From Candidatus Zixiibacteriota bacterium (GTDB lineage: Bacteria; Zixibacteria; MSB-5A5; SM1-73), in contig JBAUFO010000083.1 of assembly GCA_049679185.1 (NCBI GenBank), positions 25,958 through 89,957 on the forward strand: a DNA stretch of 64,000 nucleotides, given 5' to 3'. The position numbers and the translations under genes are program-made. The stretch's first letter is position 1, and every line of letters begins with the position of its first letter. The notes beneath the pieces are model-generated. The model did no database searches and was not told the DNA's origin. It saw only the letters and a list, made by a program, of their open reading frames with translations. Shown here one piece after another: positions 23,121 to 51,577 of the stretch.

Positions 23121-23897
23121 TTGAACTCAAGGCGCAAGCGAAAGCGAAGCTCGAAGCGAGCCGAGAAGGACCCCAAGACGCAGACATCGTTAGAAGCATT
23201 CAGAACGTTTCTGGGGAATAAGGGTTCAGACATAATACTCAGGCACACACGGCGGCTTTTCCGCACTTTGCCGAAGCGAAAGACAGCCGGAGGCTTCAAG
23301 TCATTTTTCCTATCTGCGGGCGACAAGATCAAGAAGGGGGCTAGCGCCCAAGAGAAGTTTTTAGTCGAACTTTTTCTCAGGTTTTCAGAGATAGACTCCT
23401 CATTGGAGACCCTAAAAGCTTTGCCTGTGTATCTTAAACACTTCCCCAACACGAAACGATTTGTGAAGGCCGGAATAACTGAACGAATGCATATGGTCTA
23501 CCAAATCGAGCACTACCTCCAGGAAGTCTACCTGCTTAAGTGCAGGATGAGACGTTTCCTGGTATTCCTGGGGAGAGAGCTGCGAAAGCGTGGACAACCG
23601 AGAGTGTACGAAAGCTTAGTACAATCGCTACAGCTTTTTGAGGATCGACTCGAGGGCATTCTTCTGGCCAGGGGAGCTCATGTCCACCAGAGGAGATACA
23701 CGGACCCAAGTCTTTATACCTTGTCTCTGTTCGATCTTGTCAAAGCGAATCATCAGGACGTTCAAGTTGGGTATGAACTCTTGCTGTTCGCTGAGAAGGC
23801 AAGGTGGTTGAAATGGATGCAGGAAACTAACCAGTTAATAGTGTGTATGGTCGATACTATCTTCAGCGCAGTCAATGAATATGTCCTTGAGGAATGA
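23121..23897 (+). CDS. hypothetical protein (no recognisable domain), inserted between iscU and mnmA
   Basis: 258-aa ORF starting at TTG 23121 (GGAG 7 nt upstream), basic N-terminus, overlaps the mnmA start by 23 nt. Start site uncertain; longest ORF in any frame here. Confidence 0.5.
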   Translation: MNSRRKRKRSSKRAEKDPKTQTSLEAFRTFLGNKGSDIILRHTRRLFRTLPKRKTAGGFKSFFLSAGDKIKKGASAQEKFLVELFLRFSEIDSSLETLKALPVYLKHFPNTKRFVKAGITERMHMVYQIEHYLQEVYLLKCRMRRFLVFLGRELRKRGQPRVYESLVQSLQLFEDRLEGILLARGAHVHQRRYTDPSLYTLSLFDLVKANHQDVQVGYELLLFAEKARWLKWMQETNQLIVCMVDTIFSAVNEYVLEE

Positions 23898-30803: not shown

Positions 30804-31448
30804 ATGTTTAAGCAGGTTTCCAAGGAACTGAAGAGCCATGCTCCGTTTACAACTTTTGGAGCACTTACCGGAATAATCATTATGATATTCTTTCATAATT
30901 TGCCCCCAGATGCTTCTTACAATATTTTTTATATCCTCCATCCCATCCACGTTCTATTGAGCGCGCTGGTTACCGCATCGATGTATGAACTTCATAAATG
31001 CGGGCGGGCTGAAGGTAAACGCAAACTTTGGGTTTTGCTTATAATTGGATATACAGGTTCAATTGGCATAGCCACAATAAGCGATTCGATAATCCCATAC
31101 TTAGGAGAGATTTTACTCGGATTGCCCAACCGGGGAATACATTTTGGGTTTATTGAGGAATGGTGGTTAGTGAATCCCTTAGCGATAATCGGTATTAGCA
31201 TTGCTTACCTCAGACCAACAACAAGGTTTCCTCATTTTGGTCACGTTCTGTTGAGCACCTGGGCATCGTTATTCCACATTATTATGGCGACAGGCCAAGC
31301 CTTAAATTGGGTTTCCTATTCAATCGTTTTCTTCTTTTTGTTTATTGCGGTTTGGTTGCCCTGTTGTGTAAGCGATATTGTGTTTCCTCTTTTGTTTGTG
31401 AAAGATTCAGATCCGGGTTTGGATCCTGTGGAGAACAAAACAAAATGA
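30804..31448 (+). CDS. hypothetical His-rich integral membrane protein (visibly AT-richer than neighbours)
   Basis: 214 aa, 5-6 predicted TM helices, motifs HPIH, GIHFGF, HFGH; codon composition more AT-rich than flanking genes. Confidence 0.45.
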   Translation: MFKQVSKELKSHAPFTTFGALTGIIIMIFFHNLPPDASYNIFYILHPIHVLLSALVTASMYELHKCGRAEGKRKLWVLLIIGYTGSIGIATISDSIIPYLGEILLGLPNRGIHFGFIEEWWLVNPLAIIGISIAYLRPTTRFPHFGHVLLSTWASLFHIIMATGQALNWVSYSIVFFFLFIAVWLPCCVSDIVFPLLFVKDSDPGLDPVENKTK

Positions 31449-33678: not shown

Positions 33679-34776
33679 ATGAAAATCGGTATAGTCGGAC
33701 TTCCATTTGTGGGCAAGACCACGGTTTTTAATGCCTTGACGTGTGGACAGGCCAGAGTGGGCGAATTCTCGCTCGGGGTAAAAGAAGCCAACCGGGGAGT
33801 CGTCAAGGTGCCGGATGAAAGGGTGCATAAACTGGCTACCTTCTATAATCCCAAGAAGGTGACGCCGGCCGAGGTGGAATATATCGACGTTGCCGGGCTG
33901 GTCAAGGAGACCAAGAAAAAAGCTTCGGAGGGAGAATTCTATCATTCCCTAAGGGAGGTCGACGCGCTGGCTCACGTGGTGAGGGTTTTCCAGGATGAAA
34001 ACGTGATTCGCGTCTCCGGCTCGGTGGACTTAAAAAGGGACGTCAAGAACCTGGATCTGGATTTGATCCTGATAGACTTGGACATCGTGGAGAAGAGGCT
34101 GAAGCGCTTGGAAAAGAGCGTGGCCAGCTCCAAGGATGAAGAGGAAAAAAGAGAGCTTCAGGTCCTTCTGAGATTTAAAGAGACCCTGGACCAGGGGATT
34201 CCTCTAAGAGAGATTGAGCTGTCTCCGGGAGAGGAACGGCTAATCCGGGGATATGCCTTTCTCTCTTTGAAGCCCATGCTCATCATACTCAACATAGATG
34301 AGGAGCAAAACGAGCAGAGAGAGCAACTGGAATCGGAATGCTCACAGATGACTAAGGATGAAAAAATCTCCGGCTGCTCTGTTTGCTCCATCTGCGGCAA
34401 GCTGGAGATGGAGCTTTCCCAGCTTGAGGAAGGCGATCGAAGACCCTTCATGGAGGATATGGGCATAAGAGAGCTGGCGATTGAGCGGGTGATTGACGTC
34501 TCCTACAAGCTTCTCAACTTGATCTCGTTTTTCACGGCCAATGAAAACGAGGTCAAGGCCTGGCCGGTTCCTGCGGGAATAAAGGCCATAAAAGCGGCCG
34601 GAACGGTTCACACCGACATGGAGAGAGGCTTCATCAAAGCGGAGGTGATCAGCTTCGACAGGCTGTGGGACTTAGGCTCAGTTCACAAAGTCAAAGAAAA
34701 AGGTGAATTGAGGCTGGAGGGGAAGGAGTATGTGGTTCAGGACGGGGACGTGATCTTTTTCAGATTTAATGTATGA
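33679..34776 (+). CDS. ychF: redox-regulated ATPase YchF (Obg-like GTPase family)
   Basis: MKIGIVGLPFVGKTTVFNALT, central coiled-coil insertion, C-terminal TGS domain (VQDGDVIFFRFN). Confidence 0.9.
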   Translation: MKIGIVGLPFVGKTTVFNALTCGQARVGEFSLGVKEANRGVVKVPDERVHKLATFYNPKKVTPAEVEYIDVAGLVKETKKKASEGEFYHSLREVDALAHVVRVFQDENVIRVSGSVDLKRDVKNLDLDLILIDLDIVEKRLKRLEKSVASSKDEEEKRELQVLLRFKETLDQGIPLREIELSPGEERLIRGYAFLSLKPMLIILNIDEEQNEQREQLESECSQMTKDEKISGCSVCSICGKLEMELSQLEEGDRRPFMEDMGIRELAIERVIDVSYKLLNLISFFTANENEVKAWPVPAGIKAIKAAGTVHTDMERGFIKAEVISFDRLWDLGSVHKVKEKGELRLEGKEYVVQDGDVIFFRFNV

Positions 34777-36749
34777 GCAAAGCAAAAACCCCGGCAAGGA
34801 CGCGGGCCGAAAAGATGATCTGCGGGGGGTGTCTTCTCCTTATTCTCATCCATCTGGCGGCGTCATACTTTCCTTCGGAAAGACTCTGGGGAATAAACCT
34901 GCTTCACTATCTGCCGCACGCTTGGCGATGGATTCTGGCCGTCAGCGCGACTCTGATCCTGATCCCGACTGTCAACAAAGCCTGTGGTAACCTCCTCACC
35001 GGTTTGTCCCGCATCATACCGCCTGGATTCAAAAGAGCAAATAAGTATTACCGATACGCTTTTTTCAGCCTTGTCGCGGGGGTTTTCTTCTGGGTGCTCA
35101 GGGTCAAGACCTACCTTCTGGGAGATAGTCTTGTCAGAGCCAGGGAGATTGATCTGGGCGCCAGATTCTCCTTCACTGCGCCTCTGGATTTTCTTCTGCA
35201 CGTCCAGGTGGCAGGGTTCCTGAACTGGGAAGCTTTTCAAACCTATGCCCTTTTGAGCATACTTTCAGGAGTGGGGTTTGTCTTGCTGCTTCTGCTTTTG
35301 GCAGATCTGATGGGCAGGGACGGCAAAGAGAGACTGCTGGTCTTCTCCGTTTTTATCAGCATGGGAGCAATCCAGCTCTTTTTCGGATACGTTGAAAGCT
35401 ACTCTGTGGTCTGTGCAGCTATACTTCTCTACATCTTCTTTTCATTTGGCTATCTCCGGAACAAGAACGGTCTGATCCCTCCCCTCCTTGCCTTCCTTTT
35501 GGCTTTCAGCCTGCATCTTTTTGCCGTGACCCTGCTCCCTTCGCTCCTTTACCTGATATTATCCGGGCGGGCCGGAAAGAAGGAGAAGAAGCAAGGGAAT
35601 TTTGCCGGGCTCGGTCTGTCCATCGGTATGGTGCTCCTGGTGACCGTGACTCTTTCTCTTGTGCAGAGGTATAATCCCGAACCGAAGGGGCTGGAGTATT
35701 ATCTGATCTCTCCGCTGGGCGGCTGGGAAGGATCATATTCGCTCTTTTCGTTGTCGCACCTTTTGGATCTGATAAATCATCAGCTTCTGGTTTCGCCCGT
35801 GGGTCTGTTGATCTGCCTGACCTCTGTTGTGGCCTTTTCCGGAAAGACTGGCCAAAAGGACCGGGTGGCGCGGTTCCTTCTGATCCTGAGTCTTTGCACT
35901 TTAGCCTATGCCTTCCTGGCAGACCCGAAATTGGGATACCCTCGCGATTGGGACCTGTTTGCGTTCACCGCACTCGGTTACACGCTTCTGGGGCTTCACC
36001 TGTTCCTCAAGTATCGTAGAGGTGCGCAGACAGGAGACTTGCGATACCTCACCCTGGCGTTGCTGTTTACTTCACTGCTTTCCACGATTCCTTGGATCTA
36101 TATCAACGCTGCGGAGGAGACATCGGTGACCAGATTCGAGCACGTTCTGAAGCTTGACAGAGAGAGAAGCGCCCACGGGCACGAGACTCTGGCCATGTAT
36201 TACAACCAGCGCGGCGAATGGCAAAAGGAGTTGGAGCAGTGGAAGAAAGCAGCAGTGGCGGAGGTGAATGCGCGCTACATCAACAACGTGGGGGCAGTCT
36301 ACCACCGGCAGGAGAGGTACGATCTCGCCCTCAAGGAACTGGACAAGTCTCTTGTGGTGGATCCGACCTTCGACCGCACCTATTTCAACAGGGGTGACGT
36401 TCTCGCCCGGATGGGAAGGTATGAGGAGGCCCTGAAGGATTTCCGCCAGGCCATAAGGCTGCGGCCCGACAGAATGCAGTACTACAACAACTTAGCGGGG
36501 CACCTCACGAAACTGGGTCGTGACCAGGAAGCCTTGGAGGTTCTCCAGGAGGGCATGAGCGTGAACCCGGATCATCCGCCTCTTTACCGGGATTTAGGCT
36601 ATAATCATTTCAACCTGGGTGATCTCGTGATGGCAGACAAATACCTTAAGCTCTATTTGGAGCGCGCGCCCGAAGCGGAAGATGCAGCCGAAGTTCGGCA
36701 GTTTCTAAGGGGCCTGCCGGAAAGACGGCAGCAACAACCTAAACCCTAA
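34773..36749 (+). CDS. polytopic membrane + C-terminal TPR protein, paralog 2 (GT-C/TMTC-like suspected); ATGA-overlap with ychF
   Basis: 658 aa; motifs RLWGINLLHY, LLGDSLVRAREI, DPKLGYPRDWDLFAF; C-terminal TPR repeats. Start overlaps the ychF stop (gtATGAgc). Confidence 0.8.
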   Translation: MSKAKTPARTRAEKMICGGCLLLILIHLAASYFPSERLWGINLLHYLPHAWRWILAVSATLILIPTVNKACGNLLTGLSRIIPPGFKRANKYYRYAFFSLVAGVFFWVLRVKTYLLGDSLVRAREIDLGARFSFTAPLDFLLHVQVAGFLNWEAFQTYALLSILSGVGFVLLLLLLADLMGRDGKERLLVFSVFISMGAIQLFFGYVESYSVVCAAILLYIFFSFGYLRNKNGLIPPLLAFLLAFSLHLFAVTLLPSLLYLILSGRAGKKEKKQGNFAGLGLSIGMVLLVTVTLSLVQRYNPEPKGLEYYLISPLGGWEGSYSLFSLSHLLDLINHQLLVSPVGLLICLTSVVAFSGKTGQKDRVARFLLILSLCTLAYAFLADPKLGYPRDWDLFAFTALGYTLLGLHLFLKYRRGAQTGDLRYLTLALLFTSLLSTIPWIYINAAEETSVTRFEHVLKLDRERSAHGHETLAMYYNQRGEWQKELEQWKKAAVAEVNARYINNVGAVYHRQERYDLALKELDKSLVVDPTFDRTYFNRGDVLARMGRYEEALKDFRQAIRLRPDRMQYYNNLAGHLTKLGRDQEALEVLQEGMSVNPDHPPLYRDLGYNHFNLGDLVMADKYLKLYLERAPEAEDAAEVRQFLRGLPERRQQQPKP

Positions 36750-36775
36750 AATGTAATCGTTTGCAGCAAGAATAG

Positions 36776-38779
36776 TTGATGAACCGCCTTCAAATAACGA
36801 TTCTGGCAACTTGTGGACTTTTGATCTTAGCTCGCATCGTCGCTTCCTTCTTCCCCCACCTGAGATTCTGGGGCCTCAGTCAACTTCATTATTTTTCGCT
36901 GGAGTTCCGGATTGGACTATCCGTGATCGGGCTGCTGATCCTGATTCCCAGGGTAAACAAGATCGTGGCCGGGGTGCTGGGTAGGGTCTTTGACTCGATC
37001 GCGGAAAGACTCAAAAAGATGAACAGGTATCTGTTATACTCTGCTACCAGCTTCCTCAGCCTGATTCCTTTCTGGCTTCTCAGATCCAGGACGCCGTTGC
37101 TGGGTGACGGTTACATGCGGGCCGGGGAGATCAGAATGGGGAAGCTTTTCTCCGTGGCTGAACCGCTTGATGCTTTGCTACACCTCCTGTTCTCAAAGTT
37201 CTTCGGCCTTGATGCATACACCACCTATGGAGTTTTGAGCTGCCTGGCGGGCGGGCTATTTGTTTTTCTGCTTCTTCTTCTATGTGACCTCCTGGGAGAG
37301 AATGGCAGGGAGAAGTTGCTTATCTTTTCGGTGGTACTCACCATGGGGGCGACACTGTTGTTTTTCGGGTACATAGAGAGCTATACCCTCATGTATGCAG
37401 CTATGGCCGGCTACGTTCTTTTTGCCGTGAGATATCTGAAAGGAAGAGGCGGATTTTTGCTGCCGTGTGTTTTCATGGTCTTGACAGCCGGCTTCCATCT
37501 TTCTGCTATCTTCGTTCTACCCTCACTGTTCTACTTAGCCTTTGCTCCAGTTATCCCAGGCAGTGGACAGAAGGTCAGAAAGTCTCGGTTCGTCAACCCC
37601 GTAATCCTTACCTTTGTAACGGCTCTCATCGGATTAGGTTTTTACGTTGTGCGGGCTGGTTCCTCCCAAGGCTCGGTCGGTCATCTTTTGATTTACCCGT
37701 TCGGTGGTGGCGATGAAGGCTACTCTTTTTTTTCCCTGGGACACCTGCTCGACTTTGTGAACCACCAGATCTTGGTCTCTCCGGTGAATGTGGTTTTGTG
37801 GATGGTTCTTTTGCTTCTCTTCTGGAGGAGGATCAGCCTGAAAGACAATGTGGCCAGATTTCTGTTCTGGTTGGGCATCTGTTCATTGGGATTTGCCCTG
37901 CTGGTCGATCCCAAGCTGGGATATGCCCGGGACTGGGATCTCTTCGCCTTTTCCAGTTTAGGTGCTACCCTGCTGGGGTTGTATTTGATTTTGAGTCTTG
38001 TCGGAGAGCTAACCCAAGCGGCATCCAGTCCTGGACAGGAGCAAACGCCAGGGGGCGGAGAAGGCCGAGCAATGGATTTGAGGCCGGTCACCTTGGCTCT
38101 GGTTGTTACCTCCCTGGTATCCACCTTGCCCTGGATACTGGTCAACGCCTCGGAGCAAAAGGCGGTGGCCCGTTTTGAGGACCTGCTGAAGATGGATGAA
38201 AAAGGAACAGCCCACGGCTACGAGACGCTCGCCTGTTATTTTCGAGACAGGGGGGAACACCAAAGGAGCGCTAAATCATGGAGAGACGCCATTGCCTTAA
38301 ATCCGGGTCCCCGCTATTTCGGCGCCTTAGGAAACGCGTACCAGAGGTTGGGAGAATATGATAAGGCCATAGAGGCCTATGATCGGTCTCTCCGGATGGC
38401 GTCGCACTTTCCCGGCGTGGCCAGGGTGCATAAGAACTTCGGCAACACCTTAGCCAAAGCCGGTCGGTTTGAGGAGGCAGTGCTTCAATTGAAGAAAGCT
38501 ATCGACCTGAGACCGGGAAGAACGGAGGTCCATCAGAGTTTAGGCAACATTCTGGGAAAGCTGGGAAGATATCAGGAGGCAGTCCCGTACCTGGAGATGG
38601 CGCTGGAGTCGGACCCCGGCAACGTCGCCCTATACAAAGCGCTGGGAACATGTTACGCGGCAATGGGAAGAAAAGAGGAGGCTGGAATGTACCTGAAGAC
38701 CTACCTGCAATCGAGACCTGAGGATGCCCGGAAGATAGAAGAGATCATGGATAGCCTGGAAGTTGACATACAATACTAA
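36776..38779 (+). CDS. polytopic membrane + C-terminal TPR protein, paralog 3
   Basis: 667 aa; RFWGLSQLHYFSLEFRI, LLGDGYMRAGEI, DPKLGYARDWDLFAF. About 60% identical to paralog 4 across the membrane domain by eye. Confidence 0.8.
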   Translation: MMNRLQITILATCGLLILARIVASFFPHLRFWGLSQLHYFSLEFRIGLSVIGLLILIPRVNKIVAGVLGRVFDSIAERLKKMNRYLLYSATSFLSLIPFWLLRSRTPLLGDGYMRAGEIRMGKLFSVAEPLDALLHLLFSKFFGLDAYTTYGVLSCLAGGLFVFLLLLLCDLLGENGREKLLIFSVVLTMGATLLFFGYIESYTLMYAAMAGYVLFAVRYLKGRGGFLLPCVFMVLTAGFHLSAIFVLPSLFYLAFAPVIPGSGQKVRKSRFVNPVILTFVTALIGLGFYVVRAGSSQGSVGHLLIYPFGGGDEGYSFFSLGHLLDFVNHQILVSPVNVVLWMVLLLLFWRRISLKDNVARFLFWLGICSLGFALLVDPKLGYARDWDLFAFSSLGATLLGLYLILSLVGELTQAASSPGQEQTPGGGEGRAMDLRPVTLALVVTSLVSTLPWILVNASEQKAVARFEDLLKMDEKGTAHGYETLACYFRDRGEHQRSAKSWRDAIALNPGPRYFGALGNAYQRLGEYDKAIEAYDRSLRMASHFPGVARVHKNFGNTLAKAGRFEEAVLQLKKAIDLRPGRTEVHQSLGNILGKLGRYQEAVPYLEMALESDPGNVALYKALGTCYAAMGRKEEAGMYLKTYLQSRPEDARKIEEIMDSLEVDIQY

Positions 38780-38964
38780 TAATTGCGCAGAGATTGCCTG
38801 CGAAAGAGGCCCAAGCAAAGGCAGAACCGTTTATGCTAATTCAGGCAGTTCTGGAGCAATCAAGAATTCCTGCGGCAGTACGAATACTACATGCCTCTGG
38901 CTACGGATTGGGCGCAGGTAGTGTGGACCATTGACAATACAAGTAAAAGAATGAAGGAACGCTG

Positions 38965-41019
38965 ATGCCCAAACGCTCGGATGTAAAGAGCATCTCCATT
39001 GCAGACAGTGTGGGCGCAAAGATAGAGAGGTTTATTCTGCTTACCTGCGCCTTCTTGATCCTTGTTCGTCTGCTGGCTTCCTTCTTTCCCAACTTAAGAC
39101 TCTGGGGCATCAGTCAACTTCACTACTTTTCGCTGGAGTTCCGCATAGCAGTATCCGCTGTCGTGCTTTTGCTGCTGCTCCCCAGGGTGAACAAGATCCT
39201 TACCAGGGCACTGGCTGGAATCTTCGCCTGGATAGTAGGGAGATTCAGGAAGACCAACAGATATCTTCTGTACCTCGCCATAAGCGTACTCAGCCTGATC
39301 CCCTTTTGGCTTCTCAGAGCCGAAACGCCTCTGCTTGGTGACGGATACCTGCGCGCGGGTGAGCTCAAGCTGGGTGTCCTGTTGTCGATTACCGAACCTT
39401 TGGATTTCTATCTGCATCTATTGGTTTACAGGCTGTTCGGCCTGGACAGCTACACCACTTATGCGGTTCTCAGCTGCCTGGCAGGTGGACTTTACGTGTT
39501 TCTGACTCTTCTCTTATCGCATCTTCTGGGAAAGGACGGAAAAGAGAAGTTATTCATCTTTCTGATCCTGGCTACTATGGGAGCCACCCAGCTGTTCTTC
39601 GGGCACATCGAGAGCTACTCGTTCATGTTCGTGGCCGTCCTCGCATATATTTTCTTCGGGATCAGATACCTGCAGGGGAAAGGCGCTTTTTTGTGGGCCG
39701 GTCTTTTTCTCCTTTTGGCTGTGAGCTTCCATCTCACCGCTCTTTTCGTCCTGCCTTCTTTGTTCTATCTGGTCTTTGCCAGGTTTTCCGCAGCGAGCAG
39801 TTCGAAGGCCGCGAGGCTTAAGTTTGCCAATATCGTGGTCTTAATCTGTGTGGTCTTCGTGATCGGGGCCGCACTCCATCTTCGGGGCACCTACCTGACG
39901 GAAGAGACGATCGGCTCCCCTCTGATTTATCCCTTCGGAGGCGGGGAGGGCTTCTACTCCTTCTTCTCCCTGGCTCACCTTCTGGATTTCCTGAACCACC
40001 AGTTGCTGATCTCCCCGGTAAGCCTGGTCCTCTGGGCAGTACTTCTGGTTTTGTTCCGGAGGGAGATCAACTTCAGGGAGAACGTGGTTAGATTCTTGAT
40101 TTGGATCACGGCGTGCTCGTTTGGCTTCGCCCTGCTTGCCGATCCAAAGCTGGGATATGCCCGGGACTGGGACCTTTTCGCTTCTTGCGGCTTAGGTGTC
40201 ACCCTCCTGGGATTGTATCTGACGGTCAGTCTTCTCAGAGACCGGCCCAGGGCTGCGTTCGCTGCCGGACCGGAGCGAACGGCTCACCGGGAAGAAGGAG
40301 CAGTAATGGATTTAAGGCGGGTGACCCTGCTTCTGGTCGCCACCTCCCTGGCGTCGACTTTGCCTTGGATTTTGGTCAATGCCTCGGAGCAAAAGGCGGT
40401 CGCGCGCTTTGAGAGTCTGCTCTCCATCGATGAAGAAAGGGGGGCCCACGGCTATGAGACTATGGCCTGTTATTTTCGTGATAAGGGTGAGCACGAAAAA
40501 ACAATTGGATTGTGGAAAAACGCTATTGCCATCAATCCGATTCCACGCTATTATGCCGTGCTGGGAAATGCGTACCTGAGAGTGAAAAGATACGATGAGG
40601 CCATAGAGGTGCTGGAGAAATCCATAGGGATGGCGCCGAATCGCCGGGGCATCCAGTATTCGCATAGAAGCTTGGGCGTCTGCCTATCAGCAAAGGGTCG
40701 CTACGATGAGGCGATATCCCATCTGAGGATTGCCATTGATTTAGCACCCGGCAGAGCAGATTTTCATTATATCATGGGCAACATTCTGGGTAAGGCGGGA
40801 AGATACGAAGAAGCAGTTCCGTACTTCGAGACAACATTAGGACTGAACCCGGCAGAAATCAATTCGTATAAGCTCTTGGGGATAGCCTTTGCCCGAATGG
40901 GAAAAAAAGAGGAGGCCGAAAGATACTTGGAGACGTACCTGAGGTTGGCGCCACAAGATGCAGCCGGGCTGAAGGGGATAATTGATAGTATTGAAATTGA
41001 GATAGATTCCGGCCGATAG
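38965..41019 (+). CDS. polytopic membrane + C-terminal TPR protein, paralog 4
   Basis: 684 aa; RLWGISQLHYFSLEFRI, LLGDGYLRAGEL, DPKLGYARDWDLFAS; AAGGA RBS. Confidence 0.8.
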   Translation: MPKRSDVKSISIADSVGAKIERFILLTCAFLILVRLLASFFPNLRLWGISQLHYFSLEFRIAVSAVVLLLLLPRVNKILTRALAGIFAWIVGRFRKTNRYLLYLAISVLSLIPFWLLRAETPLLGDGYLRAGELKLGVLLSITEPLDFYLHLLVYRLFGLDSYTTYAVLSCLAGGLYVFLTLLLSHLLGKDGKEKLFIFLILATMGATQLFFGHIESYSFMFVAVLAYIFFGIRYLQGKGAFLWAGLFLLLAVSFHLTALFVLPSLFYLVFARFSAASSSKAARLKFANIVVLICVVFVIGAALHLRGTYLTEETIGSPLIYPFGGGEGFYSFFSLAHLLDFLNHQLLISPVSLVLWAVLLVLFRREINFRENVVRFLIWITACSFGFALLADPKLGYARDWDLFASCGLGVTLLGLYLTVSLLRDRPRAAFAAGPERTAHREEGAVMDLRRVTLLLVATSLASTLPWILVNASEQKAVARFESLLSIDEERGAHGYETMACYFRDKGEHEKTIGLWKNAIAINPIPRYYAVLGNAYLRVKRYDEAIEVLEKSIGMAPNRRGIQYSHRSLGVCLSAKGRYDEAISHLRIAIDLAPGRADFHYIMGNILGKAGRYEEAVPYFETTLGLNPAEINSYKLLGIAFARMGKKEEAERYLETYLRLAPQDAAGLKGIIDSIEIEIDSGR

Positions 41020-43834: not shown

Positions 43835-44000
43835 CCCTGGTGCATTCTGAAGTGAGACGAGGTACGCGCATATGAGAAAGGATTTGCTTTTTTTGCTTTT
43901 TGTTCTGGTGTGGTCTATTATATTGCCAGGGTATTTTACCTGCAGCGATGGGTCCGGCTCTAAGGAAGAGCCGGGCTTAGAAAAGGAGGGAAGGTTCAAA

Positions 44001-45443
44001 ATGGGACAGGTCAGAAAGCCCGCAGTTGCGGGTCAGTTTTATCCCGGCGATCCGGTAACCCTAACCAGAGAGTTGTCGGATTTCTTTAAGAAAGCCAAAA
44101 AGGAGCCGGTGCCGGGAAAGATCGTGGCGTTGATATCTCCGCATGCCGGCTATATGTATTCGGGCCAGGTCGCAGCTTACTCCTTCAAGCTCTTGGAGGG
44201 CCTTTCCTTCGAGACGGTGGTGGTGATCTCTCCCAGCCACGTGGCTTACTTTCCAGGTGCCTCAATTTACAACGGCGGCTCTTACGAAACCCCCCTGGGT
44301 CAGATTCCTGTGGATACCACTCTGGCAGGGAAGATAGCAGATACGAGCAAAAAGGTATTTCTTTCCGACAAGGGGCACAGTTTTGCGGGGATGAGAGGAG
44401 AGCACGCTCTGGAAGTTGAGCTTCCCTTCCTTCAGCTGGTATTGGGCAAATTCAAGCTGGTTCCCATCGTCATAGCTGACCAGGACTGGGCCACCTGCGA
44501 GGCCCTGGGAGAAGCCCTCTCGAAGGCCCTTAAGGGGAAGAACGCCCTGATCGTGGCCAGTACCGACCTGTCGCATTTCCATCCGTACGATGAGGCGGTT
44601 AGATTGGACAACATCGTGATGAACCATGTGAACTCCTTCGATCCCGAAGAACTCCACTCCGATTTGGCCTCCAAAGTCTGCGAAGCCTGCGGAGGAGGCC
44701 CGGTGGTGGCGACCATGCTGGCTGCCAAGGGGCTGGGGGCAGACAAGGCCAAGGTTTTAGAGTATGCCAACTCCGGAGACGTGACCGGTGACAAATCCGG
44801 GGTGGTCGGATATATGGCGGCGGTGATCTATGACTCCAAACCAGCCGGTGACAGCAGAAAGAAATCGGAGGAAAAGAGCGAGGTTGTCGAATCCGGTCTC
44901 TCCGAGGATGACAAGAAAACGCTAATGAACATCGCCCGGACCACCATAGAGCACAGGGTGAAAGGAGAAGCTCTGCCGGAGTTTGAAGTCGACTCGCCCA
45001 TCTTAAAGGAGAACCGCGGTGCCTTCGTCACCATTCATAAGCAGGGGCGTCTGAGAGGATGCATCGGCTACATCCAGGCCATCAAGCCCCTCTACGTCAC
45101 CATTCAGGAGATGGCAGAGGCTGCAGCCCTCAACGACCATCGCTTTCCGCCGGTATCTCCGGAGGAGCTTGACGCTCTTGATCTGGAGATCTCCGTTCTT
45201 ACCCCCTTGCGAAAGATCGAGGACGTAAATGAAATAGAGACGGGAAAGCACGGGATCGTGCTGAAAAAAGGATACCACCAAGGTGTTTTCCTTCCGCAGG
45301 TGGCCACTGAGCAGGGCTGGGATCGGACCACCTTCCTCAACCAGATATGTTTCAAGGCGGGCATTCACGACAAGAACTGCTGGAAAGATGAGGACGCGGA
45401 GATATTCATCTACTCAGCCGAGGTTTTCAAGGAGAAGAAATAA
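44001..45443 (+). CDS. fusion of AmmeMemoRadiSam system protein B (MEMO1-like) and protein A (AMMECR1 domain)
   Basis: From the ATG at 44001 (AAGGAGG 10 nt upstream): MGQVRKPAVAGQFYPGDP ... ISPHAGYMYSG (Memo family), then the C-terminal AMMECR1 core GAFVTIHKQGRLRGCIG ... GVFLPQV. The listed ORF start at 43872 adds a hydrophobic extension with no RBS. Confidence 0.8.
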   Translation: MGQVRKPAVAGQFYPGDPVTLTRELSDFFKKAKKEPVPGKIVALISPHAGYMYSGQVAAYSFKLLEGLSFETVVVISPSHVAYFPGASIYNGGSYETPLGQIPVDTTLAGKIADTSKKVFLSDKGHSFAGMRGEHALEVELPFLQLVLGKFKLVPIVIADQDWATCEALGEALSKALKGKNALIVASTDLSHFHPYDEAVRLDNIVMNHVNSFDPEELHSDLASKVCEACGGGPVVATMLAAKGLGADKAKVLEYANSGDVTGDKSGVVGYMAAVIYDSKPAGDSRKKSEEKSEVVESGLSEDDKKTLMNIARTTIEHRVKGEALPEFEVDSPILKENRGAFVTIHKQGRLRGCIGYIQAIKPLYVTIQEMAEAAALNDHRFPPVSPEELDALDLEISVLTPLRKIEDVNEIETGKHGIVLKKGYHQGVFLPQVATEQGWDRTTFLNQICFKAGIHDKNCWKDEDAEIFIYSAEVFKEKK

Positions 45444-45465
45444 ACCTGATACCTCCTTTGGCAAA

Positions 45466-46707
45466 GTGAAGTCACTAAGAATAGTTCTTTACCTGGGATT
45501 AATCTTCGTTCTACTGGGCCTGATGGTGTGGGCGGGTCTGTTCAAAGCGCAGACGGGCGCAGACCTCAGTTCAGCCGCGCTGAGCCCTCCGCTTCTGGCT
45601 TGCATTTTCAAAGGAGAGCTGGAGAAGAACGAGTCTCTTTACCTTTCCCTCCTGAGGAAAGGTCTCTCCTATCAGCTGATTCATCAACTTACCTCGGTCC
45701 TCAAAGGCAAATTGGATCTGAAAAAATCCCTGCCGGGAGATTCTTATACTCTGCTATCCACCCCGGACTCCATTCTCTTCTTCGAATACCAGAAGGGCAT
45801 GCGCGAACGATGCACCTTGACAAGAGAAAACGGTGAGATGACGACCGTGGTTGAGCCGGTCGAATTCCAGTGCATCGTAAAATCACTTCAGGGGGAGATC
45901 GAGAGTTCTCTCTGGCTCTCAATGATAGGCCTGTGCCAAAGCCCGGAACTGATCATGAAGCTCACCGAGGTCTTCGAGTGGGAGATAGACTTCCTGACCG
46001 AGCCACGGAAGGGGGACAGGTTCAGGGTGATGTTCGAGGAATATTACAAGGGGGGGGATTTCGTAAGATACGGCGACATCCTGGCTGCGGAATACAGCTC
46101 GAGCGACGGGGCACATCAGGCGCTGCTGTATCGATCTCCCGAGGGGCGCAAGGGATATTTTGATCCTTCCGGCAAGTCGGTGAGGAAGGCATTTCTGAAA
46201 TCTCCTTTGAATTACAGGCGAATCAGCTCCCGCTTCTCCTACAGCCGGTTTCATCCGATCTTCAAGAGGTATCGACCGCACCTGGGAGTAGATTATGCCG
46301 CTCCGGTGGGCACTCCGGTGGTGGCATCCGGCGATGGGGTGATCTCGTTCGCCGGTTGGAAAAGGGGCTTCGGGAAAATCGTGGAGATTCGCCATCCCAA
46401 CGGATTCGTCACCATGTATGGACACCTTTCCCGCTTCGCCAGGGGAATCACGAGGGGTGCAACAGTAAGGCAGAAGGACCTGATAGGATACGTGGGGAGC
46501 ACCGGGTGTTCCACCGGCCCGCACTTGGATTATAGAGTGAAGGCGGATGGAAGATACGTAAACCCTCTCAGGATGGTTGCCCCTCCCACCGATCCAATCA
46601 GAAAAGAATATCGGGAGGATTTCCGAAGACACTGTGAAAACCTTCTCTACGCGCTGGATCTTCTCACTGGAAAGAACCTTCTCGCCTCTTGGGGTGTCAA
46701 CGAATGA
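45466..46707 (+). CDS. M23-family metallopeptidase (LytM/NlpD-like) with N-terminal membrane anchor
   Basis: HLGVDYAAPVGTPVVASGDGVI ... GYVGSTGCSTGPHLDY (HxxxD and HxH M23 motifs). GTG 45466 chosen as start; the longer ORF from 45283 overlaps the previous gene by 160 nt. Confidence 0.8.
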   Translation: MKSLRIVLYLGLIFVLLGLMVWAGLFKAQTGADLSSAALSPPLLACIFKGELEKNESLYLSLLRKGLSYQLIHQLTSVLKGKLDLKKSLPGDSYTLLSTPDSILFFEYQKGMRERCTLTRENGEMTTVVEPVEFQCIVKSLQGEIESSLWLSMIGLCQSPELIMKLTEVFEWEIDFLTEPRKGDRFRVMFEEYYKGGDFVRYGDILAAEYSSSDGAHQALLYRSPEGRKGYFDPSGKSVRKAFLKSPLNYRRISSRFSYSRFHPIFKRYRPHLGVDYAAPVGTPVVASGDGVISFAGWKRGFGKIVEIRHPNGFVTMYGHLSRFARGITRGATVRQKDLIGYVGSTGCSTGPHLDYRVKADGRYVNPLRMVAPPTDPIRKEYREDFRRHCENLLYALDLLTGKNLLASWGVNE

Positions 46708-48923: not shown

Positions 48924-49537
48924 TCTCCAATCCTCCGGATGAATACCTGACTATAAGAAGTTTAGTTCGGGCCAAGACAAAGGTGAAAGGCTCGATATTT
49001 ATTGCCACTGGCATTCCGGTAGATTCGGAGGAAGAGGCCAAGGATTCGATCCAAAAAATCTGCAAGGAGTTTTTCGATGCTACACACAACTGCTTCGCTT
49101 TCCGCATCAAAAGCGCCAATGGCGAGAGCGAAAAACTCAGTGATGCAGGAGAACCCAGGGGCACCGCAGGAATGCCCATACTGTTTGCCATCCAATCGGA
49201 GAATCTCTGCAACGTTCTGGTCGTGGTAACCCGCTACTTCGGGGGAGTGAAGCTCGGAACCGGAGGACTCTCTCGTGCCTATCGGCAGAGCGCTCAGAGT
49301 GTGCTGCAAAAGGCTGAGAAGGTCACCAGGTGGATCACGTCAGAGTTGGCCCTGTCGTATCCTCCGAACACTACCGGTAAGGTAAATCAGATCTTCGCCA
49401 AGTACGGCATCCTGGTTAAGGATCAGGGTTATGAGGATAGTCCAACCGCGAGAGTTGAGGTAAGAACGAGCCTGTTAGATAAAGTGAAGAAAGCTCTTGT
49501 TGAGGTCACCAATGGCCAGGTCAAGTTCAAATCGTAA
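48920..49537 (+). CDS. yigZ: IMPACT/YigZ family (UPF0029) protein
   Basis: FFDATHNCFAFRI ... GEPRGTAGMPIL ... VVVTRYFGGVKLGTGGL, the signature of the YigZ N-domain. Confidence 0.85.
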   Translation: MISNPPDEYLTIRSLVRAKTKVKGSIFIATGIPVDSEEEAKDSIQKICKEFFDATHNCFAFRIKSANGESEKLSDAGEPRGTAGMPILFAIQSENLCNVLVVVTRYFGGVKLGTGGLSRAYRQSAQSVLQKAEKVTRWITSELALSYPPNTTGKVNQIFAKYGILVKDQGYEDSPTARVEVRTSLLDKVKKALVEVTNGQVKFKS

Positions 49538-49538
49538 A

Positions 49539-50441
49539 ATGAAGTATGATTGCCTCGGTCTGGGCGTAAATGCAGTGGACTACCTCTGCATCCTGGATCC
49601 GTATCCTCATCTTGACGACAAGGTGGACGTGAAAAGATCTTCGATCCAGGGTGGCGGCCCTGTGCCCACCGCAATGGTGACTCTGGCAAAGCTGGGAGCT
49701 AAGGTTTGTTACGTTGGCAAGGTGGGAGATGACCCGGAGGGCGAATTCGTGGGGTCTCAGCTTGAAAAAGAGGCAGTGGATACCCGGTATCTGGTGGTGG
49801 ACAAAAAAGTGAAGACGTCCAGAGCTTTTGTCTGGGTGGATAAAGGATCAGGAAAAAGGACAGTAGCCTTAGACCGGCACAAGAAGAATCACCTCAGGAG
49901 AGGTGAACTGAGGTTTCTGAATTCAGTTTCGACTCGATTCGTGCACCTTGACGCCCGTGAGCCCGAAATCAACATATCGGTGGCTCGATGGGCAAGAGAG
50001 CAGAATGCGGAAGTATGTCTGGATGTGGGAAGCCTGAGAGATGGGGTGGAGGAGGTCTTTCCGTTCGTCGACCATTTAATCGTATCGAAAAGGTTTGCCT
50101 GTGGATTTGTCAAAACCTCCGATCCTTTCGAGGCATGCCGGACATTGATGGATAAGAAATTCAAAACCGTAGTGGTGACCGTGGGCGAGGAGGGGTGTAT
50201 ATGCGGGGCGGACGGTAAGTTTTTTCATTCACCCGGTTTTCGGGTGAAAGTGGTCGATACCACCGGTGCGGGAGACGTTTTTCATGGCGCTTTTATTTAC
50301 GGGCTTCTCAAGAAATGGTCTTTAAGAAGAATTGCAGGTTTTGCCAATGCCTGCGCGGCCATGAAATGCCGGAAGCTGGGAGGGAGAGCAGGAATACCAA
50401 CACTGAGGGAAGTTGAGGGCTTCATAAGTAACTTTAGCTGA
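49539..50441 (+). CDS. PfkB-family carbohydrate kinase (ribokinase-like)
   Basis: MKYDCLGLGVNAVDY N-terminus, VVDTTGAGDVFHGAFIYGLL anion-hole motif. Start placed at the ATG at 49539; the ORF opens at 49497. Confidence 0.8.
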   Translation: MKYDCLGLGVNAVDYLCILDPYPHLDDKVDVKRSSIQGGGPVPTAMVTLAKLGAKVCYVGKVGDDPEGEFVGSQLEKEAVDTRYLVVDKKVKTSRAFVWVDKGSGKRTVALDRHKKNHLRRGELRFLNSVSTRFVHLDAREPEINISVARWAREQNAEVCLDVGSLRDGVEEVFPFVDHLIVSKRFACGFVKTSDPFEACRTLMDKKFKTVVVTVGEEGCICGADGKFFHSPGFRVKVVDTTGAGDVFHGAFIYGLLKKWSLRRIAGFANACAAMKCRKLGGRAGIPTLREVEGFISNFS

Positions 50442-50469
50442 GAATTGTAACCATAAACAGGGGAGAGGA

Positions 50470-51111
50470 TTGGCGGCCCCTGCGCAACGAAAGGATTTTA
50501 TGTTCTGCTCAGTACTGGAAACGGTCCTTGAGTTTGACGCCTACCTGTTCTTTCTTCTCAATTACAAGGCTCAGAATGTCGTCCTCGACTTATTAATGCC
50601 CATTCTGACTAATCTGGACTACTGGCGCGTCCCCATAGCCCTACTGGCTATTGCGCTCCTCGTCTTCGGAAGAAAGAGAGGGCGAATAGCCGTCCTGCTT
50701 CTGATCTTGGGAATCACCTTGAGCGATCAGGTCTGTAACAATCTGCTTAAGCCGCTGGTGGGAAGAGTAAGGCCCTGCCATGTGCTGGACAACGTTCACC
50801 TGCTGATCAACTGCACTCATTCCTTCTCTTTTCCTTCCTCCCACGCGACCAATATCTTCACGGGAATGATCATCTTCTCCTTCGTTTACCCCAGGCTGAG
50901 GATCGGCCTACTCATTATCGCAGCGCTGGTGGCATACTCTCGGGTGTATGTGGGAGTGCATTATCCCTTTGACATAGTGGCGGGAACCGCTCTGGGCGTT
51001 GCCTGTGCAATTACCATAATAACCATCTACAAGATACTATCACGAGTACTTCCGGGGATCCTGTATGCAGAAGAGACTGGGAAAAATCGAAATCAAGCTC
51101 ATTCAGGGTGA
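50470..51111 (+). CDS. PAP2-family membrane phosphatase (undecaprenyl-diphosphatase / PgpB-like)
   Basis: PAP2 motifs KPLVGRVRP, PSSHATN, SRVYVGVHYPFDIVAG. Confidence 0.85.
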   Translation: MAAPAQRKDFMFCSVLETVLEFDAYLFFLLNYKAQNVVLDLLMPILTNLDYWRVPIALLAIALLVFGRKRGRIAVLLLILGITLSDQVCNNLLKPLVGRVRPCHVLDNVHLLINCTHSFSFPSSHATNIFTGMIIFSFVYPRLRIGLLIIAALVAYSRVYVGVHYPFDIVAGTALGVACAITIITIYKILSRVLPGILYAEETGKNRNQAHSG

Positions 51112-51577
51112 TATCACGGAGCAGGAATTCGATGCCATCGTGAACGCGGCCAACAACCATCTGTGGATGGGAGTCGGCGTGGCTGGAGCTATCAAGAGAA
51201 AAGGCGGGGTTGAGATTGAACAAGAAGCGATGAGCAAGGGGCCAATTCCTGTCGGCGAAGCAGTGGTGACGGGGGCGGGAAGCCTGAAAGCGAAGTACGT
51301 GATTCACGCTGCGGTCATGGGGCAGGACTTGAAGACGAGTGAAGAACATATAAGAAATGGCACACTCAACGCCCTGAAAAGAGCGGAGGAGCTGAAGATC
51401 AAATCGATAGCTTTTCCCGCCTTCGGCACCGGCGTGGGAGGCTTCCCGGCTGACGAGTGCGCCCGGATAATGTTCAACGCAGTCAAGGATTTCTCACAAG
51501 AGGCAGAATTCGTGGAAGAAGTCCGATTCGTCCTTTTTGACAAGGCAAGCTATGATGTTTGGAGTGTCCGGCTTTAG
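51065..51577 (+). CDS. macro-domain protein (O-acetyl-ADP-ribose deacetylase, YmdB-like)
   Basis: IKLIQGDITEQEFDAIVNAANNHL ... GAGSLKAKYVIHAAV ... IAFPAFGTGVGGFP. Confidence 0.9.
   Translation: MQKRLGKIEIKLIQGDITEQEFDAIVNAANNHLWMGVGVAGAIKRKGGVEIEQEAMSKGPIPVGEAVVTGAGSLKAKYVIHAAVMGQDLKTSEEHIRNGTLNALKRAEELKIKSIAFPAFGTGVGGFPADECARIMFNAVKDFSQEAEFVEEVRFVLFDKASYDVWSVRL

Follow-up and report, generated by a model that had tools for sequence, protein, structure and literature searches.

Downstream of ychF, in DNA from a Candidatus Zixiibacteriota bacterium, three consecutive genes each code for a polytopic membrane domain followed by a TPR array, and a fourth gene of this kind resides elsewhere in the window (the whole 64-kb stretch of DNA analyzed here). 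What do these proteins do? The preliminary description read them as glycosyltransferases of the GT-C type, and the core of that reading is borne out by our analysis: a membrane domain that is predicted to be of this type is followed by TPRs. We favor, at a probability of roughly 0.65, the interpretation that the four genes code for inner-membrane GT-C(A) glycosyltransferases that use a lipid-linked donor, act on a protein acceptor recruited by the TPRs, and differ in specificity from paralog to paralog.

Four paralogous genes share one architecture

The four open reading frames (ORFs) have exactly the positions and sizes first reported for them, with three arranged in tandem behind ychF (Table 1). 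When the window ORFs were searched with a family HMM, exactly four matched (E values of 1e-148 to 8e-218), and the next ORF gave an E value of 0.3. All four paralogs are composed of a membrane domain of ~445-472 amino acids (aa) and a C-terminal TPR array. The array was also said to be co-transcribed with ychF, and direct reading of the sequence reveals a 4-nt overlap (ATGA) between the ATG of paralog 1 and the ychF stop codon. For paralog 2, the start is probably the ATG codon at 36779, immediately after the TTG that opens the ORF, which would yield a protein of 666 aa; a database twin of this length (P0035) carries a membrane domain that is 100% identical. Scans for promoters and terminators, Rfam families and tRNAs yielded no informative match.

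Identity among the membrane domains is 59% for the 667-aa and 684-aa pair, 44% for the 658-aa copy versus either of these, and 34% for the 722-aa copy versus all three. Identity among the TPR domains is always lower, at 53% for the same pair, 34-37% for the 658-aa copy and 25-30% for the 722-aa copy. Judging from the tree, paralog 2 arose by duplication of the par3 type. Paralog 4 falls into a subfamily of its own, whose TPR array is longer (273 aa); its nearest representative (P0127) stands at 63%, and an exact database look-up of the 722-aa protein returned no record.

Table 1. Positions of the four paralogs, their domains and conserved motifs, and ychF in the window.
Feature	Position (nt)	Strand	Basis or remark
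ychF (YchF-type GTPase/ATPase)	33679..34776	+	Pfam YchF-GTPase_C 1.5e-34 and MMR_HSR1
Paralog 1, 658 aa, par1-type	34773..36749	+	ORF; family HMM E 1.8e-192; typing and tree
Paralog 1, predicted GT-C membrane domain, aa 1-445	34773..36107	+	Motif coordinates, alignments
Paralog 1, catalytic-position Asp D118	35124-35126	+	Motif coordinates
Paralog 1, periplasmic TPR domain, aa 446-658	36108..36746	+	Pfam TPR_2 2.5e-21, TPR_1 3.6e-19
Paralog 2, 667 aa from TTG	36776..38779	+	ORF
Paralog 2, membrane domain	36776-38146	+	
Paralog 2, D111	37106-37108	+	
Paralog 2, TPR domain	38147-38776	+	
Paralog 3, 684 aa, par3-type	38965..41019	+	ORF; AF2 models made
Paralog 3, predicted GT-C membrane domain, aa 1-472	38965..40380	+	13 TMs
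L-G-D126-G, start of EL1-equivalent loop, proposed catalytic Asp	39334..39345	+	D 99-100% conserved in family
F-G-x-I-E216-S-Y218, EL2 equivalent	39598..39618	+	E216 100%, Y218 99% conserved
F-H256-L-T, EL3 turn between TM7 and TM8	39727..39738	+	H256 95% conserved
H338-L-L-D341-F-L-N344, helix of long EL4 loop	39976..39996	+	86-97% conserved in family
R400-D401-W-D403-L-F, EL5 directly ahead of TM12	40162..40179	+	D401, D403 100% conserved
Paralog 3, variable cytoplasmic loop TM12-TM13, aa 425-452	40237..40320	+	
Paralog 3, periplasmic TPR domain, aa 473-684	40381..41016	+	12 helices, ~6 hairpins
Paralog 4, 722 aa	18316..20484	-	ORF; family HMM E 1.1e-148
Paralog 4, membrane domain	19141-20484	-	
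Paralog 4, D124	20113-20115	-	

Predicted topology and fold of the membrane domain

AF2 models were made of residues 1-492 of paralog 3 (pLDDT 84.4, pTM 0.88) and of the full-length protein. The AF2 helices, combined with the positive-inside rule applied to 138 family members, give 13 TM helices with a cytoplasmic N terminus, rather than the 10-12 helices initially described. They also place the conserved acidic loops and the TPRs in the periplasm; the opposite location of the acidic loops had been named in advance as grounds for abandoning the glycosyltransferase reading. K and R residues reach a density of 0.15-0.28 in each of the seven segments predicted to be cytoplasmic, as against 0.00-0.11 in each of the six periplasmic loops.

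TM1 and TM2 constitute a family-specific extension ahead of a canonical 11-TM GT-C core, and this extension carries an invariant W-G loop that is likewise specific to the family. Since these two helices come before the core, the first periplasmic loop is not the one that holds the catalytic-position Asp. A conserved Asp had been assigned to that loop, but the segment after TM1 has none, and its His, which had been put forward for a conservation check, gives way to Ala in paralog 4. The invariant Asp (D126 of the 684-aa copy) follows TM3. From there the loops follow a long-short-short-long-short pattern; the EL1-like loop is separated from the EL4-like one by six TMs, and four TMs stand ahead of the TPRs, which are the counts found in TMTC and TMEM260. 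In the AF2 model of paralog 3, the EL1-like loop spans aa 117-161 with helices at 127-136 and 145-158, and the EL4-like loop (aa 311-349, ~39 aa) contains one helix at 336-349.

The short hypervariable segment noted earlier is real, but it corresponds to the cytoplasmic loop between TM12 and TM13 and not to the TPR junction. Across 38 homologues this loop varies from 8 to 37 aa with a column identity of 0.19, compared to 0.57-0.76 elsewhere; its K and R density is 0.28 and its AF2 pLDDT is below 50.

Foldseek searches with the modelled membrane domain revealed similarity to solved GT-C enzymes, with Pmt4 as the best fold match. On the strength of this model, we assign the membrane domain to the GT-C (GT-C_A) fold. 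The TPR domain of the full-length model best resembles peptide-binding TPR clamps, specifically those of Hop, CHIP, Sgt2 and PP5.

A remote relationship to DUF2723/TMEM260-like proteins

Single-sequence scans of the four membrane domains against Pfam and NCBIfam produced no match at E ≤ 10. This outcome includes the families proposed for checking in the preliminary description, since the HMMs for PMT (PF02366, PF13231, PF16192), PMT_2, DUF1736 (PF08409), DUF2723 and Wzy_C all fail to match the four paralogs at this threshold. The membrane domains of ten distant family members likewise have no Pfam or NCBIfam match at E ≤ 1, such that the DUF2723 HMM (PF11028) recognizes none of the 14 members tested (E ≤ 1 to 10), whereas the same HMM scores 1.2e-32 with a DUF2723 protein that adjoins a family member. 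In sequence searches of the PDB, a four-paralog profile retrieved only TPR matches, and a membrane-only profile retrieved nothing at E ≤ 10.

DUF2723/TMEM260-like proteins (PF11028, GT117) are the sole family detectable by sequence profile. When our broad family profile (138 sequences) was compared by hhalign with a profile of these proteins (111 sequences), the two aligned over 293 columns with 93.6% probability and an E value of 2e-7, while reversed and block-shuffled decoys reached 0.1-8.3%. When the family was split into two disjoint halves, these gave 93.7% and 94.9%. Furthermore, 12 invariant or near-invariant columns coincide between the two profiles, including D126 with the F-D-D motif. 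A profile restricted to Zixibacteria reaches just 5.5% (0.05% against a single DUF2723 sequence), and therefore the link depends on the broad profile. Taken together, these profile comparisons indicate that the family is a remote sister of the DUF2723/TMEM260-like proteins (CAZy GT117). Of the assignments originally suggested, the GT117-like one is the closest that can be detected, and those to DUF1736 and PMT did not hold.

Comparisons with ArnT by hhalign gave probabilities of at most 5%. The targets were a 5ezm fragment and an Escherichia coli ArnT sequence that scored as ArnT-like (E 2.4e-31), and then 117 Cupriavidus ArnTs. We do not count this result as absence of a relationship, because a positive control that compared DUF2723 with ArnT likewise gave no signal.

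Conserved residues of the periplasmic loops

The motifs R-x-W-G, [LW]-G-D-[GS], F-G-x-x-E-x-Y, H-L-L-D-x-x-N and R-D-W-D-L-F are present in all four paralogs, each of which retains every invariant residue. The reported consensus DPKLGY[AP]RDWDLF does not extend to the 722-aa copy, which reads DPALAAPRDWDLF.

Several conserved residues have DUF2723 counterparts. D126 aligns to the F-D-D motif (D in 89% and D in 100%), E216 and Y218 to E147 and Y149 (99% and 100%), H256 to H214 (100%), D401 to D358 (100%), and D403 to E360 (E in 74%, D in 22%). The H338/D341/N344 motif is specific to the family, and the DUF2723 columns aligned with it are not conserved. In TMEM260, D52 of the first lumenal loop is required for activity (PMC10214176).

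A large family with gene turnover in Zixibacteria

The family comprises 4,539 clusters at 50% identity, and the cluster names of ten representatives read only 'hypothetical' or 'TPR'. It is a large bacterial family covered by no curated model. Our search of the literature on Zixibacteria glycosyltransferases, DUF2723, GT117 and prokaryotic TMEM260 uncovered no description of this family, and no characterized bacterial DUF2723 protein.

Within Zixibacteria, the genes occupy a conserved slot (HAD, YchF, one to three copies, Lon) that has experienced repeated gene gain and loss. Adjacency to the YchF family is kept in at least 16 related genomes, and the par1-type gene is always first and the par3-type always last. 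There are four copies in the window, and at least 6-8 per genome in related Zixibacteria MAGs by a pattern-limited count. The earlier proposal that the paralogs form a set diversifying in acceptor specificity would fit this copy-number turnover and the faster divergence of the TPRs.

Some members found in Anaerolineae are devoid of TPRs, and thus the TPR domain is not essential to the family; no recurring sugar-pathway partner was found among the neighbors of these TPR-less genes. In one Anaerolineales MAG (L046), the end of a DUF2723 gene overlaps a family member by a single base. A membrane-anchored GT2 gene divergently adjoins family members in eight other genomes, but not in the window, and provides the sole indirect hint of a polyprenyl-phosphate-linked donor; comparisons of these GT2 proteins with the GtrB, ArnC and DPMS types aligned no more than the generic GT-A region at the N terminus.

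Proposed function and alternatives

By analogy with characterized GT-C enzymes, these proteins most likely glycosylate envelope proteins with sugars supplied on polyprenyl phosphate. In our model, the chain starts in the cytoplasm and passes through the two family-specific TMs into the 11-TM core, whose five periplasmic loops present D126, E216/Y218, H256, H338/D341/N344 and R400/D401/D403 (684-aa numbering), and a TPR solenoid of ~6 repeats projects into the periplasm. As for PMT, TMTC, TMEM260, ArnT and TfpW, a polyprenyl-phosphate carrier would donate the sugar on the outer side of the inner membrane, with D126 serving either as the catalytic base or in acceptor binding. The TPR domain may recruit the acceptor, most likely a secreted or envelope protein, and the paralogs may differ in acceptor (or donor) specificity.

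A rather unlikely alternative, although the strongest competitor, keeps the same fold and chemistry and makes the acceptor a glycolipid or polysaccharide (lipid A/LPS core or an envelope glycan), as for ArnT, RgtA-D and Emb/Aft, with the TPRs docking to envelope-assembly machinery. The gene neighborhood fits this idea. All the neighbors previously listed are present: AsmA is encoded upstream, as are the lipid A acyltransferase, GT9 heptosyltransferase, PfkB kinase and HAD phosphatase, whose genes lie immediately ahead of ychF and the array, Lon follows downstream, and TamB and Omp85 (TamAB) reside near paralog 4. The upstream order recurs in a number of Zixibacteria (L008, L011, L016, L019, L026, L035), and TPR scaffolds are frequent in periplasmic polysaccharide export (PelB, BcsC, PgaA, AlgK). 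However, in the complete genome CP070839.1 the HAD-YchF-array-Lon-Memo order is maintained while the LpxL-GT9-PfkB block is not adjacent, and family members are present in Anaerolineae, for which we know of no LPS production. Moreover, the closest relative (TMEM260) and the best fold match (Pmt4) both modify proteins, as do all known enzymes that combine GT-C and TPR domains (TMTC, TMEM260, TfpW).

It is improbable that the proteins are catalytically inactive GT-C-like scaffolds, comparable to PIG-U/GAB1 of the GPI transamidase, in which a lipid groove and TPRs would organize an envelope complex. Most GT-C enzymes carry a D-D or D-E pair in EL1, and the four paralogs have the single Asp of G-D-G/S at this site. 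Furthermore, no gene for a polyprenyl-phosphate-sugar synthase, a flippase or PMT_2 is located within the 64-kb window. Both points speak for such scaffolds and against our favored reading. Nevertheless, ~12 polar residues of the periplasmic loops are 95-100% conserved over thousands of clusters and are kept in all four paralogs, and they coincide with DUF2723/TMEM260 invariants, among them the Asp at which mutation abolishes TMEM260 activity (PMC10214176).

The idea of an O-antigen ligase or polymerase (Wzy_C, WaaL), SEDS-type protein or transporter fused to TPRs, although in keeping with the envelope neighborhood and with the existence of bacterial Wzy_C-type membrane and TPR fusions, is very improbable and was rejected on fold and profile results, given that Wzy_C has no match even at E ≤ 10, Foldseek returned no similarity to WaaL, Wzy or SEDS proteins, and its few transporter and GPCR entries are weak (probability ≤ 0.21, TM-score ≤ 0.18). 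Placement of the membrane domain in such a family had been the other ground named in advance for abandoning the glycosyltransferase reading.

A more far-reaching form of the protein-glycosylation reading can be offered only tentatively. The proteins might constitute a CAZy-level family of their own, made up of bacterial GT-C enzymes that glycosylate proteins and a prokaryotic counterpart of TMTC/TMEM260. In it, the TPRs of each paralog would serve a distinct class of envelope proteins, and the pair of added TMs, together with the EL4 helix that bears H-x-x-D-x-x-N, would create a donor or acceptor site unlike those of known GT-C enzymes.

TMTC1-4 and TMEM260 reportedly are client-specific protein O-mannosyltransferases of animals that have only recently been recognized, and their bacterial relatives are, to our knowledge, essentially unstudied. 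Thousands of clusters named 'TPR repeat protein' or 'hypothetical' carry a predicted GT-C domain, and so a capacity for periplasmic glycosylation has probably been overlooked in the annotation of Zixibacteria, Anaerolineae and other uncultured lineages. The family provides a seed for a new Pfam, NCBIfam or CAZy model, and its residue set and series of paralogs with diverging TPRs offer natural material on GT-C acceptor choice. These findings extend a known enzyme class and overturn no concept.

Comparison with known systems

The DUF2723/TMEM260-like proteins share with the family the EL1 Asp, G, P-L, S, E-x-Y, H, P, Y, D-x-[DE] and F. The human protein O-mannosyltransferase TMEM260, which acts on IPT domains, has a partly comparable layout, its 11-TM GT-C core leading into a lumenal domain that consists in part of TPRs (PMC10214176). 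In contrast, the present proteins have 13 TMs owing to their 2-TM N-terminal extension, some family members lack TPRs, G-D-G replaces F-D-D, and neither the EL4 H-x-x-D-x-x-N motif nor R400 has a conserved DUF2723 counterpart.

TMTC1-4 (DUF1736, GT105) resemble the family in their 11 core TMs, long helical EL1 and EL4, non-cytoplasmic C-terminal TPRs, and an Arg/acidic cluster in EL5 ahead of TM10 (PMC7801869). They differ in having D-D rather than G-D-G/S in EL1, 11 rather than 13 TMs, and a metazoan rather than bacterial distribution, and the family has no DUF1736 match. TMTCs also match ArnT at ~1e-20 in HHpred (PMC7801869), whereas no link to ArnT was obtained for the family at the sequence level, a difference that is not firm because the ArnT control failed. 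The PMT family (GT39; yeast Pmt4, Pmt1 and Pmt2) is 9-14% identical to the present proteins, which have no PMT, PMT_2 or PMT_4TMC match and carry a C-terminal TPR domain instead of a MIR beta-trefoil in EL4. ArnT (GT83) has a small alpha/beta periplasmic domain rather than TPRs, and its acceptor is lipid A.

In the pilin D-arabinofuranosyl transferase TfpW, the first periplasmic loop bears a DDX motif, and the tfpW gene lies next to pilA, whereas the array lies next to ychF and lon, with no adjacent pilin gene in the window. By published description, however, TfpW of Pseudomonas aeruginosa is of similar size and has the same domain order, namely a GT-C domain with a periplasmic TPR domain, and it is needed for pilin glycosylation (bioRxiv 10.1101/2020.04.19.049825).

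A large protein family without a curated model

All four paralogous open reading frames (ORFs) listed in the preliminary description were found exactly where it placed them, and they can be aligned end to end (alignment A1). When a family HMM is run against the 64-kb window, it yields exactly four matches, par1 through par4 (E 8e-218 to 1e-148), and the best non-paralog ORF reaches only E 0.3. The membrane domains of par2 and par3 are 59% identical, par1 is 44% identical to either, and par4 is 34% identical to each other paralog. The C-terminal parts are always less alike (53% for par2/par3, 34-37% for par1 vs par2 or par3, and 25-30% for par4), and thus the TPR part diverges faster.

The ychF stop codon overlaps the par1 ATG (GTATGAGC, read in the sequence), and gaps of 26 nt and 185 nt separate par1 from par2 and par2 from par3, respectively. 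The par2 ORF opens with TTG-ATG (window 36776-36781), and a 666-aa protein from a Candidatus Zixiibacteriota MAG (P0035) has an identical membrane domain. As a result, par2 translation probably begins at the ATG at 36779. The P0035 match also assigns the window to a Zixibacteria genome.

Strong TPR matches cover the C-terminal 210-275 aa of the paralogs. In contrast, Pfam and NCBIfam searches with the membrane domains return no match even at E≤10, and so the DUF1736/PMT assignment proposed earlier is wrong. Searching the PDB with a membrane-only profile built from 38 sequences (A2) likewise yields no match at E≤10. With residues 1-450 of par3 as query, a word-indexed search recovered 180 relatives, all TPR fusions, whose names are limited to 'TPR repeat protein', 'PilF' or 'hypothetical'; those with a named organism all derive from Zixibacteria MAGs. 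An exhaustive HMMER search of 1.84 billion representatives with A2 identified 4,539 clusters at E≤1e-3, of which 1,901 reach E≤1e-30. Lengths are mostly 600-850 aa, with some of about 450-470 aa. In ten of the more distant members, too, the membrane domain matches no Pfam family, and the names of ten clusters that were looked up are uninformative. We conclude that this is a large family that has no curated model.

Coordinates of the paralogs, par3 transmembrane segments, and other features in the window and in related loci (L numbers)
Feature	Location	Coordinates	Strand	Remark
par1	window	34773-36749	+	658-aa ORF
par2	window	36776-38779	+	667-aa ORF
par3	window	38965-41019	+	684-aa ORF
par4	window	18316-20484	-	722-aa ORF
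W-G pair of par3	window	39097-39108		R45-L-W47-G48
par3 TM1-TM7	par3 residues	6-38, 57-79, 99-116, 162-188, 192-213, 219-236, 242-255		AF2 helices + hydropathy
par3 TM8-TM13	par3 residues	257-271, 279-310, 350-364, 373-391, 402-432, 450-473		AF2 helices + hydropathy
Unknown ORF	window	30804-31448	+	214 aa
Three putative ORFs	window	23121-23897; 4155-5051; 58858-59742	+; -; -	258-298 aa
Memo-AMMECR1 fusion	window	43872-45443	+	523 aa
M23 peptidase ORF	window	45283-46707	+	as listed
Second PfkB kinase, PAP2 phosphatase, Macro-domain protein	window	49497-51577	+	in a row
Sulfatase-domain ORF	window	53665-55677	-	670 aa
DUF2723 gene	L046	1732-3717	+	PF11028 1.2e-32
TPR-less family member	L046	3717-5135	+	
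Dynamin-like GTPase	L046	5216-7078	-	
Dynamin-like GTPase	L064	1838-3664	-	
Divergent GT2	L032	3355-4527; 6733-7797	-; -	GT-A + C-terminal TM-like segments
Divergent GT2	L043	5383-6474; 6578-7624	-; -	GT-A + C-terminal TM-like segments
Divergent GT2	L054	6694-7773	-	GT-A + C-terminal TM-like segments

Fold and topology of the membrane domain

AlphaFold2 models of par3 residues 1-492 with A2 (pLDDT 84.4, pTM 0.88) and of full-length par3 (pLDDT 84.7, pTM 0.82; 12 helices past the last TM), taken together with hydropathy, reveal 13 TMs rather than the 10-12 initially counted. Among 138 diverse members, the density of K+R is 0.15-0.28 in all seven predicted cytoplasmic segments and 0.00-0.11 in all six predicted periplasmic segments. 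This pattern places the N-terminus inside, and the conserved polar residues and TPR domain outside, in the periplasm. A segment described as hypervariable is indeed variable (8-37 aa, column identity 0.19), but it is the cytoplasmic TM12-TM13 loop and not the TPR junction, from which it is separated by TM13.

Positions conserved in at least 80% of the family (par3 numbering) comprise W47, G48, F114, R118, L124-G125-D126-G127, S170, G174 and G206 in the N-terminal half; L210-F211-F212-G213-Y214, E216, Y218, H256, P264 and L269 in the middle; and Y331, S335, H338, D341, N344, L348, P351, F377, G397, R400-D401-W402-D403 and N472 towards the C-terminus. The consensus Y214 is His in par3 itself. 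No conserved acid resides in the post-TM1 loop, where a conserved Asp had been proposed; the invariant Asp (D126) instead follows TM3. Two short helices lie past this residue, and the loop thereby resembles the first external loop (EL1) of GT-C enzymes. From there on, the external loops run long-short-short-long-short; six TMs separate the two long ones, and four more lead from the second of these to the TPRs. These TM and loop counts equal those of TMTCs (PMC7801869) and TMEM260 (PMC10214176). The membrane domain adopts a GT-C fold, and the original GT-C reading was right in substance.

Remote homology to DUF2723/GT117

One related locus, from an Anaerolineales MAG (L046), carries a TMEM260-like/DUF2723 gene that shares one nucleotide, its final one, with the start of a TPR-less family member, suggesting that the two are co-expressed; they are possibly a pair of GT-C enzymes like Pmt1-Pmt2. 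Starting from this DUF2723 gene, we gathered 111 real DUF2723 sequences as a comparison set. An hhalign comparison with the 138-member family profile gave 93.6% probability (E 2e-7, 293 aligned columns), placing family TM3 on DUF2723 TM1. Two disjoint halves of the family scored 93.7% and 94.9%, whereas reversed profiles reached 0.1-0.2% and block-shuffled decoys 0.3-8.3%.

Conserved columns coincide in this register: D126-G127 with D (89%)-D (100%), G137 with G (98%), P145-L146 with P-L (100% and 97%), S170 with S (99%), E216 with E (99%), Y218 with Y (100%), H256 with H (100%), P264 with P (100%), Y331 with Y (99%), D401 with D (100%), D403 with E/D, and F405 with F (100%). All invariant residues are retained in each of the four paralogs. 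In human TMEM260, activity requires the first-lumenal-loop Asp D52 (PMC10214176).

Judged by the controlled hhalign score and the coincident columns, the family is a remote sister of DUF2723/GT117 that carries a two-TM N-terminal extension. It is not a DUF2723 member in the Pfam sense, since the PF11028 HMM gives no match. The family also has motifs of its own, namely the W47-G48 loop, an EL4 helix (H338/D341/N344) and R400. The W-G pair, located in the short periplasmic loop joining the two extra N-terminal TMs, is 96-99% conserved, which ranks it with the most invariant positions family-wide. Neither DUF2723 nor other GT-C enzymes have an equivalent of this pair. Profile comparisons with ArnT were negative, but so was the positive control of DUF2723 vs ArnT, making this result uninformative either way.

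Genomic setting and turnover of the array

The envelope-gene neighborhood is as previously described: AsmA, peptidase MA, lipid A acyltransferase, GT9, an unknown ORF, PfkB, HAD and YchF lie in this order on the 5' side of the array, and Lon, a Memo/AMMECR1 fusion and an M23 peptidase on the 3' side. TamB, Omp85, C26 peptidase and ThiE precede par4, and Rrf2/IscS follow it. At E≤1e-5, no Pfam family matches the unknown 214-aa ORF, flanked by the GT9 heptosyltransferase and PfkB kinase within an LPS-core-like block, or any of three other putative ORFs. The M23 ORF as listed overlaps the Memo-AMMECR1 fusion by 160 nt, and so its true start is probably further downstream. The sulfatase-domain ORF has approximately 300 aa ahead of its domain, which suggests a putative LtaS/EptA-like membrane enzyme; this ORF and the second PfkB, PAP2 and Macro-domain genes are possible further candidates for envelope-lipid modification. 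Window positions 1-64000 contain no tRNA gene, and no Rfam family reaches its gathering score there.

Scanning one genome per species with a pattern-limited search gave 243 relatives, and 79 loci were kept, mostly from Zixibacteria and some from Anaerolineae. The slot HAD-YchF-[family members]-Lon-Memo/AMMECR1 is conserved, and all related loci have the Memo-AMMECR1 fusion downstream of lon. The slot holds one copy in L009 and L019, two in L002, L003, L006, L008, L011, L012 and L016, and three in L001, L004, L005, L010, L017 and the window. Arrays of at least two copies begin with a par1-type and end with a par3-type gene. In a neighbor-joining tree, par2 and the L001 middle gene are sister to the closest par3-type clade, indicating that the par2-type duplication predates the split from L002 and L003, both of which lack a par2-type gene. 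Other middle copies form a separate clade on the par1 side (L004, L008, L010, L017, L018), and L005 has its own pair. These placements show that the array turns over in copy number, with genes repeatedly gained and lost.

In several genomes the LpxL-GT9-PfkB block lies upstream of the array. This is not so in the complete genome CP070839.1, which keeps the YchF overlap. Additional copies with ~30% identity, some in tandem pairs, occur elsewhere in the same genomes. Par4, whose nearest representative is 63% identical, falls in a subfamily whose TPR arrays are longer, and Anaerolineae members are ~450 aa and lack TPRs. Another subfamily (~30% identical), which forms tandem pairs in L027 and L045 and is single-copy in L076, is in each case followed by an opposite-strand MgsA/RarA AAA+ gene. 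Bacterial dynamin-like GTPase genes adjoin TPR-less members in two Anaerolineae loci (L046, L064), and DUF4012 and DUF4013 proteins are also close by in L064 and L070. Several loci come from ENA MAGs labelled 'uncultured Ignavibacteria' (L004, L005, L008-L010, L013, L016-L018 and others) that carry the same Zixibacteria-type HAD-YchF-array-Lon-Memo block; their YchF and Lon are 75-86% identical to those of the window, and these taxonomic labels look unreliable.

Donor, acceptor and proposed mechanism

No GT2, GtrA or PMT_2 gene is present within the 64-kb window. In eight other Zixibacteria genomes (L029, L030, L032, L034, L043, L048, L054, L068), a family member is divergently paired, at a spacing of 70-560 nt, with a GT2 gene encoding 350-390 aa. 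These GT2 proteins have a GT-A domain, 1-3 predicted C-terminal TM segments (2 or 3 in four of five proteins examined) and a motif conserved at the C-terminus, LRIANIYP...IPLSxVDH. Polyprenyl-phosphate-sugar synthases share the architecture of a GT-A domain followed by C-terminal TMs, and thus the paired GT2 may make a lipid-linked donor. PDB matches are confined to the generic N-terminal GT-A region, and so this role stays a hint.

We propose that a polyprenyl-phosphate sugar would be bound in a membrane-embedded groove, with its phosphate contacted by R400, and that the acceptor hydroxyl would be activated or positioned by D126 with help from E216, H256, D401 and D403, and possibly also from a metal ion. 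The TPR solenoid would present a periplasmic protein acceptor, and different paralogs might serve different clients. The main alternative is that the acceptor is a lipid or polysaccharide. The conservation of the residues makes an inactive scaffold unlikely. A protein acceptor is consistent with the TPR domain of the par3 model, which most closely resembles peptide-binding TPR clamps.

The interest of this uncurated GT-C family related to GT117 lies chiefly in the annotation gap that it exposes and in the tractable bacterial system that it would offer for studying TPR-guided GT-C enzymes. The GT-C enzymes with TPRs that have been studied experimentally, namely TMTC1-4, TMEM260 and the bacterial TfpW, all glycosylate proteins (PMC7801869; PMC10214176; bioRxiv 10.1101/2020.04.19.049825).
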